Shown in pieces: positions 3,031 to 63,657 of a stretch of DNA of 64,000 bases (position 1 is the first letter of the stretch; each line of letters begins with the position of its first letter). The translations under genes were made by a program, and so were the position numbers. This stretch comes from Octopus vulgaris (Eukaryota). The notes under the pieces are model-generated. The model saw only the letters and a list, made by a program, of their open reading frames with translations, searched no databases and was not told the origin of the DNA. The DNA is taken from the NCBI GenBank assembly GCA_951406725.2, contig OX597820.1, positions 120,218,001-120,282,000 on the forward strand, in the 5' to 3' direction.

Positions 3031-3442
3031 ACTCTTTTACTATTTCACTTGTTTCAGTCATTTGACTGCGGACATGCTGGAGCACCGCCTTTAATCGAGC
3101 AACTCGACCCCGGGACTTATTCTCTGTAAGCCCAGTACTTATTCTATCGGTCCCTTTTGCCGAACCGCTAAGTGACGAGGACATAAACACACCAGCATCG
3201 GTTGTCAAGCAATGCTAGGAGGACAAACACAGACACACAGACATACACGCACACACATATATATATATATATACATATATACGACAGGCTTCTTTCAGTT
3301 TCCTTCTACCAAATCCACTCACAAGGCTTTGGTCTGCCCGAGGCTATTGTAGAAGACACTTGCCCAAGATGACATGCAGTGGGACTGAACCCGGAACCAT
3401 GTGGCTGGTAAGCAAGCTACTTACCACACAGCCACTCCTGTG
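3031..3442 (-). mobile_element. SINE family A, full length
   Basis: Colinear with the other family A copies from head to tail. Confidence 0.92.
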
Positions 3443-3837
3443 TTATATATATAACATAAGAATGGAAGAACAAAAGAGAATGAGTGGAGGAAATATTCTG
3501 ATGAACGCCGTTTTATGGTTGATTCCATAAACTTTGTGATATAGAAATTGAGTTTGACAGGATGCTAGCTGCCAGGAACATATTGATTCTTCTTGGCAAT
3601 GGAAATAATACACCGTTTTCCCAAAGATCTTAGTGTATTTTGTAGAAATCGAGAGACTTAAGGCTGTGGCGCATCTGTAAAAGGTAACGAAAGTAAATTT
3701 GAAATGGTCAGTGGCCGTCCACATTTGAACTGACAAAATTAGTTTGAAATTGGTAAGTCTGCAAGTTGGTGGGAATTGTTTGGCGGAAGGGCATTCGCTT
3801 GATGGGTTTGTACAAGAGCACATACTTTCTAAATATC

Positions 3838-15422: not shown

Positions 15423-16175
15423 ATATATATATATATAAATACATATATATGCATATATATATGTGTTCATGTATACGTATATATATATGCGTGTGTGTGT
15501 CTGTGTGTATGTATATGTATGTATCTTTTACATCAACCAAAGTGGGAATGAGAGATTAACAGAAGGAATACTTGTATGATCATAAAAATTCGAGAAATAA
15601 GCGTACAAGAGGAAGGGACATGCAGTGTATTTCGGAGCGTGTTAATCGTAGTTTGTCTATAGAGCTTGTCATATGCCTTGCGCTCTCTTCATAATCAAAT
15701 TACTTCCAGTCAATTTCCCTCCAGCAGCAGACATGTTGGTTACCACCACTTTCGTTATAAGATAACCACAATCAAACCACATGACTCACGCAACATTGTA
15801 CGATATATATAATTGGCAAAAAGCAAAGCTAAGTTCACGATCACATAACTAGCGATGCCATCAGAATCTAGTCGTGCTTGTCAGCTGTAACCTAATCTTC
15901 GTTGAACTCTTCTTTGCTTCGGTTTCTACAACTTTTCCTCTTAGTTTTCATTTTTAACAATGCATACATTCATGCATCAACATATATGTACGTGCGTGCA
16001 TGCGTGTGAAGGTGTGTCTGCATCTATCATCCTCTCTCTCTCTGTCCTGTCTTTTACTGTTTATATTTTGTACTGTCGTTACTGTCCTGTTTTTGTTACC
16101 ATTTTTACCCCTTCGCAAAAAAATCTCAAATTATATTTAATTTGCTTTTCGCGGGAAGGAAAGTTTCATAAAAGT

Positions 16176-16236
16176 CATGTATCGCCTTGACCTTCGAAAC
16201 GTGGAGTAGATGAAACAAAGGCGACTGAAGAAGGCG
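16176..16236 (+). ncRNA. Candidate reverse-permuted (pseudoknotted) hammerhead ribozyme, copy A
   Basis: CATG-TA-TCGCCTT .. CCTTC-GAAA-CGTG .. AAGGCGA-CTGAAGA-AGG; 7-bp stem I, up to 6-bp stem III, intact core. Confidence 0.55.
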
Positions 16237-16451
16237 AATGTTCCTTGTATTGTATGTCCTGTACTCTATATTTTCGTTGCTTCAGAAAAATGTCCATTTC
16301 CTTGGTCTTCTGTTTATGTTTTCGTTTCTCATTGTGTTCGACGGTTTTTTTTTTGTGTCCTGTACCCATATATGCATGTATATATACATTTAGAGGTAGG
16401 TACGTACATATATGTATGTATATATGTATATGCTTTAATTATTCATTAATT

Positions 16452-16519
<68 letters not shown>

Positions 16520-19506: not shown

Positions 19507-19912
19507 ACGCAGTAGTGGCTGTGTGGTAAGTAGCTTGCTAACCAACCACATGGTTCTGGGTTCAGTCCCACTACGTGGCATCTTGGGCAAGTGTCTTCTG
19601 CTATAGCCCCGGGCCGACCAATGCCTTGTGAGTAGATTTGGTAGACGGAAACTGAAAGAAGCCTGTCGTATATATGTATATATATATATGTATGTGTGTG
19701 TTTGTGTGCCTGTGTCATTGCTTGACAACCGATGCTGGTGCGTTTCCGTCGCCGTAACTTAGCGGTTAGGCAAAAGAGACCGATAGAATAAGTACTGGGC
19801 TTACAAGGAATAATTCCCGGGGTCGATTTGCTCGATTAAAGGCGGTGCTCCAGCATGGCCACAGTCAAATGACTGAAACAAGTAAAATAGAGTAAAATAG
19901 AGAAAATAGAGT
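19507..19912 (+). mobile_element. SINE family A, full length
   Basis: Colinear with family A; tail AGTAAAATAG repeats. Confidence 0.92.
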
Positions 19913-24746: not shown

Positions 24747-24782
<36 letters not shown>

Positions 24783-24998
24783 AGATAAATAAAAATATAT
24801 GCATACATACAAACATATATGTACGTACCTACATCTACATGTATATATACATGCATATATAAATAATTATACGGGAGTACAGGACATCACAATAAGACGT
24901 AGAAACGGAAAAAAACAAAAAAACAAAAAACAAGAAAACGGAAAACGAAAAACAAGAAAACGAAAAACAAATACAGGACGAGCTACACAAGGACAAAA

Positions 24999-25057
24999 CC
25001 CCCGTCATCAGCTGTCGCTAGAGGAGTCAGGCATGTTTCGAAGGCATAACAGAACAC
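24999..25057 (-). ncRNA. Candidate reverse-permuted hammerhead, copy B
   Basis: Minus strand: GTG-TT-CTGTT .. CCTTC-GAAA-CAT .. GACAG-CTGATGA-CGGGGG. Confidence 0.5.
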
Positions 25058-25131
25058 TAATCCAATAGGCCTTCCTGCGAGAGAATTAAAATAAAATTCC
25101 AAGCAGCGGGGCAAAATGATACGAACACAAA

Positions 25132-25162
<31 letters not shown>

Positions 25163-25492: not shown

Positions 25493-26130
25493 ATGTATGT
25501 ATATATATACCAGATAATCAGAAGATTCTCTCTTCATGCTAATGCAGAAACAAAGATTGTGTATGCTTCCCTGTTTTTTACTGCACAGATACTCGCCAAA
25601 ATTTAGAGGCAAGAATTGATGTTGCTTACACTCGAGAGTGTATAGATATCTTTAATAAAATCATACAAAAATGTGTATTGCAGTTTTCTTGCATAACTAA
25701 TGTCAGTAATGCAATAAATTATGACAGTTGTGCACGTGCTTGAAGCCAAATCTTTTTATATGGGTAGAACTGTAAAATTCAACGGCAAACAATGTTTACG
25801 TTGCTTATTCTGCAAATGTCCAAAAGTGTTGGAAGAACTGAGTAAAAAGTTTCATCTGTACCTATGTCACATCTGGATTCAATTCTGACGCCTTCATAAA
25901 TGCCTCATTGTTTTGTTCAGTACTTCCGAATACTTGTCTGAGGAGACATTTTGATAACGGAGACTGGAGGCATAAACATACAACATTCATGTCACTTTGA
26001 ACGCAGAGGTTTCTAACTACATTCTGTGGTTTTATATTTTAGGTAACAGAAATCACTGTCTGTCAATATGCATACAAATATATACAACACTTCTATATAC
26101 TTATGTATGTAATATATGTAATATATAAAT

Positions 26131-26185
26131 ATTAATCAGCCGAAATTGCGAGGATGATCCGGTTCTTGACTGAAGATTAGAGGCT
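26131..26185 (+). ncRNA. 5'-truncated copy (D) of the 63473-63538 reverse-permuted hammerhead candidate
   Basis: AGCC-GAAA-TTGC..TCTTGA-CTGAAGA..GGCT; the cleavage-site strand is missing. Confidence 0.4.
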
Positions 26186-26281
26186 TCGAATGACCCGTCC
26201 GTTTTTTGTGTCGTCTATTTAAATGTTTTGCGTTCTTGTCCCATTTTGTATTTTAATATATATTTTCTATACATATATATG

Positions 26282-26374: not shown

Positions 26375-26785
26375 TTTACTTTGTTTTACTTGTTTCAGTC
26401 ATTTGACTGCGGCCATGCTGGAGCACCTTCTTTGGTCGAGCAAATCGACCCTGGGACTTATTCTTTGTAAGCCCAGTACTTATTCTATCGGTTTTTTTTT
26501 GCCGAACCGCTAAGTTACGGGGACGTAAACACACCAGCATCGGTTGTCAAGCAATGCTAGGGGACAAACACAGACACACAAACACACATACATATATATA
26601 TATATATAGAGAGAGATATATACGACAGGCTTCTTTCAGTTTCCGTCTACCAAATCCACTTACAAGGCATTGGTCGGCCCGGGGCTATAGCAGAAGACAC
26701 TTGCCCAAGATGCCACGCAGTGGGACTGAACCCGGAACCATGTTGTTGGTTAGCAAGCTACTTACCACACACCCACTCCTTCGCC
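26375..26785 (-). mobile_element. SINE family A, full length
   Basis: Colinear with family A. Confidence 0.92.
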
Positions 26786-35080: not shown

Positions 35081-35982
35081 GGCGCAGGAGTGGCTGTGTG
35101 GTAAGTAGCTTGCTTACCAACCACATGGTTCTGGATTCAGTCCAACTGCGTGGTACTTTGGGCAAGTGTCTTCTACTATAGCCTTAGGCCGACCAAAGCC
35201 TTGTGAGTGGATTTGGTAGACGGAAACTGAAAGTGTGTATATGTATGTATATATATATATATATATATATTTATATGCGCAGGAGTGGCTGTGTCGTAAG
35301 TAGCTTGTTTACCAACCACATGGTTCTGGGTTCAGTCCCACTAGGAGTGGCTGTGTGGTAAGTAGCTTGTTTACCAACCACATGGTTCCTGGTTCAGTCC
35401 CACTGCGTGGCACCTTGGGCAAAGTGTCTTCTAATATATCCTCGGGCTGACCAAAGCCTTGTGAGTGGATTTGGTTGACGGAAACTGAAAGAAGCCCGTC
35501 GTATATATGTATATATGTATATATATATATATATATATGTATGCGTGTGTGTGTTTGTCCCCCTAGCATTGCTTGACAACCGATGCTGGTGCGTTTATGT
35601 CCCCGTTACTTAGCGGTTCGGCAAAAGAGACCGATAGAATAAGTACTGTGCTTACAAAAGACTAAGTCCCGGGGTCAAGTTGCTCGATTAAAGGCGGTGC
35701 TCCAGCATGGCCGCAGTCAAATGACTGAAACAAGTAAAAGAGTAAAAGAGTATATGTATATGTCGAAGTGTTTGTGCGTCTGTGTTTGTCCCACCACCAA
35801 CAACGCTTGACAACCGATGCTGATGTGTTTATGTCCCCGTAACTTAGTGGTTCGGCAAAAAAAGACGGATAGAATAAGTACTAGGCTTACAAAGAATAAG
35901 TCCTGGGGTCAATTTGCTCGACTAAAGGCGATGCTCCAGCATGGCCGCAGTCAAATGACTGAAACAAGTAAAACAGTAAAAC
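35081..35982 (+). mobile_element. SINE family A split by a second family A copy
   Basis: Head half 35081-35234, tail half ~35765-35982. Confidence 0.85.
35277..35751 (+). mobile_element. SINE family A with tandemly duplicated head, nested in another A copy
   Basis: AGGAGTGGCTGTGT..GGTTCAGTCCCACT occurs at 35281 and again at 35343, then the full body and tail. Confidence 0.88.
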
Positions 35983-39380: not shown

Positions 39381-39599
39381 CTCTTTTACTCTTTTACTCT
39401 TTTACTTGTTTCAGTCATTTGACTGCGGCCATGCTGGAGCATCGCCTTTAGTCGAGCAAATCGACCCCGGGACTTATTCTTTGTAAGCCCAGTACTTATT
39501 CTATCGGTCTCTTTTGCCGAACCGCTAAGTTACGGGGACGTAAACACACCAGCATCGGTTGTCAAGCAATGCTAGGGGGACAAACACAGACACACAAAC

Positions 39600-39630
<31 letters not shown>

Positions 39631-39801
39631 CATATATACGACAGGCTTCTTTCAGTTTCCGTCTATCAAATCCACTCACAAGACATTGGTCGGTCCGGGG
39701 CTATAGCAGAAGACACTTGCCCAAGATGCCACGCAGTGGGAGTGAACCCGGAACCATGTGGTTGGTTAGCAAGCTACTTACCACACAGCCACTCCTGCGC
39801 C
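39381..39801 (-). mobile_element. SINE family A, full length
   Basis: Colinear with family A. Confidence 0.93.
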
Positions 39802-45350: not shown

Positions 45351-46613
45351 CTGAGTTGTCCGGAAAGTTCGTACCTGTTTATAGTAGCTTACCTTTCGAC
45401 TTATTTTAGAACATGGTTGAGTCCATAAAATAGAATTTGACTACACCTCCATTGAGAGCACAGTTTAAGCTATCTTTTTGTGGAAAAAAGTTTATGTTCC
45501 TATAAACTGTGTTAATTCTGTAACCCTTTAAAATGGAAGAGAAGAACGTTCATTTTCGGCACTTGATGCTTTTCTTTTTCCGTAAAGGGAAAAATGCCTC
45601 ACAATAAACCAAAGAAATATGCGCAATTTACAGTGATGTTTCTTTATCCGAAAGAACTGTACGGAAGTAGTTCGCAATATTCCGAGCTGGAGATTGTAGC
45701 CCTATTGATAAGGCAGGCCATCCACTACAGATGATGACCAAATCAAGTAATTAAGAATAACCCACATTGTACGACCCGAGAATTGGCAGAAAGTATCCAC
45801 CTATCAAAATCCGTCGTTCACGAGCACCTAGTAAAGCTTGGGTACACAAATCACTATGGTGTTTGGCTACAACATGAGTTGAGTGAGAAGAAACTTTTGG
45901 ATCGCATTTCCATTTATGATTCGCTTTTTAAACGGAATGAAAACGCGCCTTTTTTAAAGCAAATTTTGACAGTTAATGAGAAATGGATTATCTACCGAAA
46001 TACTCAGAGAAAGCGATCCAGGAATAAGCGATATGAGCTACCCTTAGCCAACCCAAAAGGGGGTCTTCGCTCTAAAAAAGTCTTGCTTTGTGTCTGTGGA
46101 AAGGAATTCTGTACTATGAGCTTCTCCCAAGTAACCAGACAATTAATTCTGAGAAATATTGCACACGACTGGACGAGTTAAAAGCAGCAATTCAAGAGAA
46201 ACGTCCAGAATTGGCCAACAGGTAGGGTGTTGTTTTCCAACATGATAATGCAAGATCGCACGTTTCTATGGGAACCAGACAATAAATGCTGCAGCTCGGC
46301 TGGGATGTGTTACCCCACCCTCTATATTCACCAGATATTGTTCCTTCGAATTTCCACTTATTCAGGTCTCTGCAGAATAGTCTTAATGGCAAAAATTTCA
46401 AATCCTTGGATGACATGAAAATATACCTAGATGAATTCTTTGCCATGAAATCACCTCAATTCTGGGAAGAGGGTATTTTCATGTTAAAGGAAAGATGGAG
46501 ATGCATTGTGCAACAAAATGGTTTATATTTGGTTGATTAAAAATATAATGGCAAGTATCTGTTGACCTTTGTCTTTCCTTTAAAAATTGACACGAACTTC
46601 CCGGACAACCCAA
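45351..46613 (+). mobile_element. Full-length decayed mariner transposon (mellifera-subfamily-like), 1263 bp
   Basis: TA|CTGAGTTGTCCGGAAAGTTCGT ... ACGAACTTCCCGGACAACCCAA|TA. Confidence 0.93.
45533..46540 (+). pseudogene. Mariner transposase pseudogene
   Basis: MEEKNVHFRHLMLFFFRKGKNASQ*...GVWLQHELSE...FLKQILTVNEKWIIY...HDNAR...HPLYSPDIVPSNFHLFRSLQN...; multiple stops and frameshifts; first and third catalytic Asp read as Asn. Confidence 0.92.
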
Positions 46614-61074: not shown

Positions 61075-61485
61075 TGGCTGTGTGGTAAGTAGCTTGCTTA
61101 CGAGCCACATGGTTCAGGGTGCAGTCCCGCTGCGTGGCACCTTCGGCAACTGTCTTCTACTATAGTCACGGGTCAACAAAATCCTTGTGAGTGGATTTGG
61201 GAGACAGAAACTGAAAGAAGCCTGTCGTTTATATGAATATGTATATATGTGTGTGTGTTTGTTTGTGTGTCTGTGTTTGTCCCCCCAACATCACTTGACA
61301 ACTGATGCTGGTGTGTTTACGTCCACGTAACTTAGCGGTTCGGCAAAAGAGACCGATAGAATAAGTACTGGGCTTACAAAGAATAAGTCCTGGGGTCGAT
61401 TTGCTCGTCTAAAGTCGGTGTGCCAGCATGGCCGCAGTCAAATGACTGAAACAATTAAAAAAAGTAAAAAAGTAAGTAAAGTAAG
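61075..61485 (+). mobile_element. SINE family A, head slightly truncated, preceded by a 34-bp tandem duplication
   Basis: Colinear with family A; 61007-61040 is repeated at 61041-61074. Confidence 0.88.
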
Positions 61486-63317: not shown

Positions 63318-63367
<50 letters not shown>

Positions 63368-63472
63368 AGAACAAAGTGTACGTATGTCGCTATATATATA
63401 CATATATACAAAATGAGACAAGAACGCAAAACACCTTGATAAATGATACAAAAATCAAGGACAGTCATTCGA

Positions 63473-63538
63473 AGCCTTTCATCTTCAGTCAAGGACCGGA
63501 TCATCCTCGCAATTTTGGCTGATTAATCTTGAAATTGC
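63473..63538 (-). ncRNA. Candidate reverse-permuted hammerhead, copy C
   Basis: Minus strand: GCAA-TT-TCAAG .. AGCC-(A)AAA-TTGC .. CTTGA-CTGAAGA..GGCT; the G of GAAA is retained in copy D. Confidence 0.42.
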
Positions 63539-63657
63539 TCCAATCTGACCAGCCCCAAGGAAAAACTAAGCTAAGAGCATTAGATTCCTTGGAAAAAGGA
63601 TCGAATGTATACGAAACAAGGACGGAAAAACAGACGATGATACACGAATATTATTTT

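Follow-up and report, generated by a model that had tools for sequence, protein, structure and literature searches.

A reversed-order hammerhead with a probable four-way junction in Naiad-type Penelope-like elements and related mobile repeats of Octopus vulgaris

A short RNA motif present in thousands of copies in the genome of Octopus vulgaris is a real, high-copy, new variant of the hammerhead ribozyme, belonging neither to types I, II, and III nor to plain type SGC. The reading we prefer, with a probability of roughly 0.75, is that of a hammerhead with reversed block order whose stem II is likely split into a four-way junction, and which likely self-cleaves the RNA of Naiad-type Penelope-like elements (PLEs) and their derivatives, with cleavage probably slow in one of the families (family B). 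The motif was analysed in 64,000 nt of contig OX597820.1 (GCA_951406725.2, forward-strand positions 120,218,001 to 120,282,000), here called the window, which contains a member of family B (copy B), a member of the related family A (copy A), and two copies of a third family (Table 1).

Core and helices of copy B

An earlier note on this DNA had read the minus strand from 25057 to 24999 as a hammerhead with compensating stems. Its letters are exactly those of the sequence, and its interpretation holds for the core, the reversed (S-G-C) block order, and stems I and III, but probably not for stem II and the role given to an upstream GGAAGG segment. All catalytic bases of copy B are intact. C3-U4-G5-A6-N7-G8-A9 (25011-25005) and G12-A13-A14 (25039-25037) occupy invariant alignment columns, the A15.1-U16.1 pair is U-A in 10 of 10 alignment rows, and with U at H17 the cleavage triplet is GUU. 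In the 10-row alignment, stems I and III are 100% paired, and three of the four pairs in each stem have changed on both sides. The proposed stem II, GGGGG/CCTTC, is probably wrong, as it needs a bulged base, contains two G-U pairs that are never repaired, and is 82% paired in the alignment, one U-G remaining unrepaired in all 10 rows; in copy B it is possible as an alternative fold. The segment TCGC(A/G)GGAAGG does occur ahead of both copies, with two occurrences in the window (16149 before copy A and 25080 before copy B), but the view of GGAAGG as an inhibitor is probably mistaken. In every other family examined, this strand is re-lettered together with the strand preceding GAAA and thus behaves as a constitutive helix.

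The motif extends beyond the limits first drawn for it, with its 5' start at 25111 on the minus strand. Unprompted, the MFE fold of copy B pairs the strand after A9 with CCCCG (25111-25107) to form P1, followed by the P2 hairpin and P3 (GAAGGC/GCCUUC), with zero unpaired bases between the three helices. Its folding energy is ordinary (z = 0.05) in a calculation without pseudoknots. The fourth helix, P4, has a duplex energy of -4.7 kcal/mol in family B versus -8 to -10 in several other families, and may tie together the far ends of P3 and stem I by analogy with the 'I' helix of type SGC (PMC10085705).

Table 1. Features of the window, with the parts of the motif in copy B
Feature	Position	Strand	Basis or remark
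SINE-like repeat copies	595-811, 3040-3443, 19507-19890, 26382-26783, 35751-35975, 39397-39799, 61075-61460		
Copy A element (related family)	16037..16481	+	ribozyme 16108-16236; predicted cut 16181/16182
Copy B element, 354 nt, 5'-truncated, of a ~850-nt non-coding repeat	24781..25134	-	flanked by two (TA)n runs
Whole motif of copy B (112 nt), probable four-way junction	25111-25000	-	
P1 5' strand CCCCG, partner is the strand directly after A9	25107..25111	-	MFE fold
P2 hairpin, abuts P1 and P3 with zero unpaired bases	25075..25106	-	MFE fold, descriptor test, alignment
P3 5' strand GAAGGC (formerly the 'inhibitory' segment), likely the functional stem II partner	25069..25074	-	fold, descriptor test, alignment
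P4 5' strand, weak partner of 25025-25018 in family B	25061..25068	-	duplex energy
Block S: stem III 3' strand, U16.1 (25054), U17 (25053), stem I 3' strand	25048..25058	-	sequence, covariation
GTG	25057-25055	-	sequence
TT	25054-25053	-	sequence
Predicted cut of copy B	between 25053 and 25052	-	
CTGTT	25052-25048	-	sequence
Block G: P3 3' strand GCCTTC, G12-A13-A14-A15.1, stem III 5' strand	25033..25045	-	sequence
CCTTC	25044-25040	-	sequence
GAAA	25039-25036	-	sequence
CAT	25035-25033	-	sequence; a 16-nt linker then separates CAT from GACAG
P4 3' strand, stem I 5' strand GACAG, CUGAUGA, P1 3' strand CGGGG	25000..25025	-	sequence
GACAG	25016-25012	-	sequence
CTGATGA	25011-25005	-	sequence
CGGGGG	25004-24999	-	sequence
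Copy C, third family (P3 3' strand CAGCC; L267)	26128..26280	+	position by eye
Copy D, same family as copy C, complete four-way layout	63328..63651	-	parsed by eye

The helices are supported by covariation. Over the five helices, 99.1% of 211 alignment cells are paired and 13 of 22 pairs have changed on both sides, compared with 41-50% pairing in slid controls, one of the 10 rows lacking the 5' part. P2 is 100% paired with two of its four pairs changed on both sides, and P1 has G-C in copy B, U-A in most families, and C-G to A-U in L266. This last family is the source of the two-sided P3 changes inside the alignment, and the wider re-lettering of P3 comes from families too distant to align, the versions in the window's genome being GAAGG/CCTTC, GACACC/GGTGTC, GAGCAA/TTGCTC, and GGTT/GACC. 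A descriptor test found the junction in 74 of 110 distinct cores (65/89 of the CCTTC type, 6/13 of the GTGTC type, and 3/8 others) versus 28 of 2,200 trials with shuffled upstream sequence; truncated and mutated cores were kept in, and 36 of the 110 fail. After strand swaps between families, the junction was found in 0/445 and 1/65 cases. In 120 metagenome loci, retrieved with a motif taken from cnidarian Naiad records, P3 reads GGCTCC/GGAGCC, the junction is found in 13 of 28 distinct whole cores versus 9 of 560 shuffles, and P1 and stem I show two-sided changes within the family. P1, P2, and P3 abut without linkers across families unrelated in sequence, and stems I and III and the catalytic bases are kept.

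Individual copies show variation and decay. One P1 base is mutated in copy A, the 5' end of copy C lies, by eye, about 6 nt past its predicted cut, and copy D has decayed through a mutated G12. In one subfamily (L062, L063, and L086), CUGAUGA is followed by TT in place of A, so that the first P1 pair, next to the core, becomes a U-U mismatch or bulge.

Abundance in the octopus genome

The genome, 2.8 Gb in size, abounds in TA microsatellites. It contains 4,633 matches to the S-G-C pattern versus 12 for a reversed control, and 6,097 versus 54 when the cleavage-triplet block is omitted; the motif is not a chance occurrence. A 141-nt query around copy B gave 980 candidates, with 30 of the 40 scored being 100% identical, and a copy A query gave 2,592. 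One looser pattern is about 40% chance (680 matches versus 269 in the control), and several of its matches (L226, L203/L267), compatible by eye with the four-way layout, stand outside the 110-core junction count. Rfam hammerhead models gave no match at gathering score in the window and weak, microsatellite-driven matches near the motif. None of eight pattern matches in viral contigs had stems I and III. An HDV-like fold of the TCGC-GG segment, drawn by eye, was set aside because the hammerhead core and stems are complete.

Comparison with known hammerhead types

The block order of copy B is S-G-C rather than CGS, GSC, or SCG, placing it outside hammerhead types I, II, and III. Eckert et al. 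2023 (PMC10085705) named this order type SGC, and the passages of that paper describing it report metatranscriptomes only and no genomes of known organisms. Copy B shares with this type (HRIMA-1, SGC variant) the order itself, all core bases, and a short linker between stem I and the stem II strand (2-3 nt in copy B, about 3 nt in type SGC). In type SGC, a further helix connects the distal ends of stems I and II; its possible counterpart, P4, is strong in several families but weak in family B. The same passages assume that the strand after CUGAnGA is always a stem II strand and that the block is uninterruptible; block C of type SGC is unbroken, with stem II within 1-2 nt of CUGAnGA. In copy B, by contrast, the likely partner strand of stem II is found on the 5' side of block S, and A9 continues into a helix of its own. 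The strand after A9 covaries with P1 and the strand before GAAA with P3, although copy B keeps a residual alternative. Unlike the metatranscriptome record of type SGC in that paper, the four-way motif is found in thousands of copies in an animal genome. Type CSG, which the same source presents from two metagenome sequences only, has the same reversed cyclic order but is opened elsewhere and has no four-way junction. We found no description of the four-way layout in the literature searched, the scope of which left out subscription journals and bioRxiv supplements, nor in the Naiad passages of a 2026 preprint on retrozymes (10.64898/2026.07.22.740005).

Mobile elements carrying the motif

Copy B is 98.6% identical to the family B unit over 351 nt. 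This unit is about 850 nt long, with a tandem spacing of 853 nt in L016, and contains no protein-like ORF and no Naiad-type ORF (N-terminal GIY-YIG, C-terminal RT). All 81 exact copies of the young subfamily found via a 3' anchor were retrieved: 58 stop at a common site with (TA)n behind it, 5 continue into the following unit or tail, and 18 differ. The 5' ends are scattered, and both tandem (L016) and inverted (L030, L441) copies exist. The family is very young: among its 67 whole copies, 23 have exactly the sequence of copy B. A fixed 3' end, (TA)n targets, 5' truncation, and tandem or inverted copies are given as marks of PLEs in the passages of PMC8557442 on insertion, and the insertion pattern of family B is that of a non-autonomous Penelope-type element. 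Over a common 69-nt segment on the 3' side, families A and B are 94% identical. Family B resembles the Naiads described in PMC8557442 in its (TA)n targets, tandem and inverted copies, and tails, but differs in having no ORF and no detected sequence link to the Naiad ORF. It also resembles the animal non-LTR retrozymes (PMC7229834; 10.64898/2026.07.22.740005), which in the passages describing them are non-coding, ribozyme-bearing, partly tandem, and proposed to use PLE enzymes. These retrozymes, however, have type I hammerheads and units of 170-400 nt, in contrast to the rewired ribozyme, the units of about 800-900 nt, and the mostly single, 5'-truncated copies found here.

Neither the Naiad ORF nor the intact PLEs tested showed a sequence link to families A and B. 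Neptune-like families (L121, with 635 aa, and L299-L302, with an intact 784-aa frame) and two young families with a C-terminal endonuclease (L161-L172) were rejected as the autonomous partner, sharing no sequence with the A and B units; the exceptions in this comparison were one nested family A copy and one short simple-sequence match. Family A copies adjoining PLE fragments (L049, L050) are single cases and provide no link to a mobiliser. A young Neptune-like PLE (L299-L307), whose 784-aa ORF is intact and which has a degenerate minimal hammerhead close to the 3' end, is a candidate mobiliser, albeit without sequence in common with the two families. In L049/L091 (around position 1370), a 5'-truncated family A copy and the 3' end of a Neptune-like PLE are fused without a spacer, a single case that could reflect a template jump by the enzyme of this PLE.

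Several other repeats were observed alongside these families. A Neptune-like PLE (L121, L123, L127, L130, and most of L092-L120) has a minimal type I hammerhead in its 3' UTR, with an A3-U8-like core, a palindromic stem III, an optional tail of about 40 nt, and (TA)n. The two young PLE families of L161-L172 have ORFs of 840-980 aa with a C-terminal endonuclease-like region and very long 3' UTRs, and their 976-aa frame had no Pfam match at E 0.01. In L055 (about 470-590), a separate repeat, whose hammerhead core is of canonical type I, stands immediately upstream of a tandem family A insertion. The window itself also contains several copies of a dispersed SINE-like repeat of about 400 nt (81-93% identity) and, on the plus strand at 45738-46181, a 147-aa open frame that resembles a fragment of a mariner-type transposase.

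5' ends of copies near the predicted cut

Cleavage of the RNA template predicts copies whose 5' ends lie at the cut or a short way 3' of it. Among the metagenome copies with enough flank, 46 of 95 begin at +1 to +11, 8 at 0 or -1, and 2 at -7. Thus, 54 of 95 ends fall at -1 to +11, including 15 of 95 at -1 to +1, and the successive 13-nt windows upstream contain 1, 1, 3, and 5 ends, the first two corresponding to 1/39 and 1/38 copies at risk. A few pairs in this sample resemble one insertion in two assemblies, and its short contigs under-represent full-length copies. In the window's genome, 19 of 92 ends of CTTC-type copies (93 of the first 100 matches listed, 92 of them real) lie at 0 to +12 versus 4, 5, 2, 3, 2, and 5 in the upstream windows. 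For the family-A-type (30 copies, 3'-anchored), +1 to +27 contains 8 of 26 ends, the adjoining 71 nt upstream 1 of 18, and +27 to +145 4 of 30. Across the whole genome, a 31-nt window lying mostly 3' of the cut contains 414 TA junctions versus 34 for a 25-nt window 5' of it; these counts are uncleaned, include duplicates, and come from anchor pools of comparable size (at least 1,496 and at least 1,356). The peak in the window's genome is at +5 to +10, tailing to about +24, and not at +1. These pile-ups in related families are the likely footprint of cleavage in vivo, from which we conclude that the class probably cleaves.

The pile-up is missing in family B, where 0 of 68 copies at risk end in +1 to +27. 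Its ends instead cluster at +45 to +80 (9 ends), 3' of the motif, and the distribution differs from that of family A (p = 1e-5). Family B is also the family with the longest rival SGC stem. As the pile-up is missing and a plain SGC stem is possible, family B may cut slowly, and it probably either does so or often sits in another fold. Slow cutting would fit the report on an anole PLE (PMC11167929), in the passages of which uncut RNA is the main substrate. The same passages describe hammerhead cleavage as unnecessary for insertion in vitro, which weighs against the preferred reading. The weak P4 is not supported as the cause of the missing footprint, as similar values are found in a family with a pile-up.

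Link to Naiads

The passages of Craig et al. 2021 (PMC8557442) on ribozymes describe Naiads as lacking canonical hammerheads and flag eight 'half-core' cases, with the label 'HHR_half_core' covering two cephalopod Naiads. We read the passages of their supplement that contain 7-mer matches, some of which are misfits or chance 7-mers. By eye, the four-way layout is found at the published consensus ends of Naiad_Obim, Naiad_Ovul, Naiad_Aacu, Naiad_Anas, and at least four more records, with different stems in each, and the ends of several nematode Naiads (near Naiad-2_Nbra, Naiad-3_Nbra, and Naiad_Hcon) look like clean type-CSG hammerheads. In the window's genome, the GGTGTC family (576 matches versus 1 in the control) matches the 3' end of the octopus Naiad in that supplement. 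Of 30 Naiad RT loci, 14 have it downstream of the RT in sense orientation, and L310 contains EN, RT, and ribozyme in that order. The GIY-YIG and RT frames upstream of it are broken and have weak Pfam matches. The ribozyme is thus positioned at the sense 3' end of Naiad remnants. Searches for EN and RT in this genome (150 candidates scored of 12,477 and of 2,368) gave broken remnants alone and no intact Naiad ORF, and Craig et al. likewise report, in the passages concerned, no intact Naiad in cephalopods. One of two exact primer matches (L288) was without a Naiad, and no RT was found upstream of the 120 metagenome loci.

Alternative explanations

In one alternative, close to the view of the earlier note, copy B would be a plain type-SGC hammerhead with a bulged C and a GGGGGU/GCCUUC stem II, and P1, P2, and P3 would form an inhibitory alternative fold. 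Its block order and 2-3-nt linker match type SGC as described in PMC10085705, the required stem can form with 6 bp in copy B and with 4 bp and a bulge in all 10 aligned rows of the CCTTC clade, and a ribozyme that is mostly switched off would be expected to leave no footprint. Half of the pairs in this stem are G-U, however (3 of 6), and at -5.3 kcal/mol it is weaker than either of the two rival helices (-8.0 and -8.2). Moreover, the stem is missing in the Naiad-linked and metagenome families (duplex energies of 0.0 and 0.1 kcal/mol, mean 0.46 bp), and it is in the metagenome family that the 5' ends drop off most sharply at the predicted cut. This explanation is improbable. An explanation that accepts the fold in the class is rather unlikely, though less so: family B would be nearly inactive and spread from uncut RNA, the structure being mainly a recognition signal for the Penelope protein. 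The lack of ends after the cut, their clustering at the 3' edge of the structure, the GUU triplet, and the weaker P4 are all compatible with it, as is the role of uncleaved RNA as the main anole PLE substrate (PMC11167929, in the passages cited above). On the other hand, such a loss would have to be reconciled with the fully intact catalytic bases of a very young family, with the ends near the predicted cut in other GUU families, and with the pile-up in a family with an equally weak P4.

Two further explanations concern cleavage itself. The pile-up might reflect polymerase stalling at a stable structure or assembly bias, given the peak 5-10 nt away from the cut in the window's genome, the under-representation of full-length copies in short metagenome contigs, and the family B ends at the structure's 3' edge. 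Yet the metagenome ends at -1 to +1 are followed by an abrupt drop just upstream, inside the same structure, and few family A copies start at the 3' edge of the structure, so stalling or bias is about as improbable as a plain SGC fold. That cleavage needs two RNA copies, as a dimer or by trans pairing of tandem monomers that rebuilds a nested, pseudoknot-free hammerhead, is very unlikely: each helix closes inside a single copy of 112 nt, stem III (4-7 pairs) differs from the short palindromic type, and tandem units are 800-900 nt apart, even though tandem copies exist and dimeric cleavage has been reported for animal retrozyme hammerheads (PMC7229834, in its passages on cleavage).

Proposed mechanism and implications

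Under the four-way junction reading, the topology would be that of an SGC/CSG-type circle whose opening lies between A9 and 10.1. P3 would stack under G12-A9, as stem II does, A9 would cross over into P1, and P1 would stack on P2, with P1 plus P2 replacing the A9-10.1 link and P4 supplying the contact between stems I and II. A Penelope-type reverse transcriptase, acting in trans, would copy the RNA from its fixed 3' start, and reverse transcription would halt at or just before the cut end, giving rise to the 5'-end pile-up. A broader reading, for which we see about even odds, is that the four-block hammerhead broken between A9 and 10.1 is, together with type CSG, the missing ribozyme of Naiads, spread over several animal phyla, with a gap-free four-way junction in place of stem II that can switch by restacking, and cutting in vivo, and that the family B derivatives have outlived their master element, tuned the ribozyme down, and changed their Penelope enzyme.

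In PMC10085705, the CUGAnGA block and the paired strands next to it are assumed to tolerate no interruption, an assumption that the four-way layout breaks. The layout adds a seventh wiring to a model ribozyme, along with a ready site for inserting regulatory helices. The view, expressed in the hammerhead passages of PMC8557442, that Naiads lack hammerheads would also be overturned, and reversed-order hammerheads, described from environmental RNA, would take their place in animal genomes at thousands of copies. With the 5'-end cliff, cleavage in vivo can be read from sequence alone, and by comparing the families with a cliff to the cliff-less family B, the role of the ribozyme in PLEs becomes testable.
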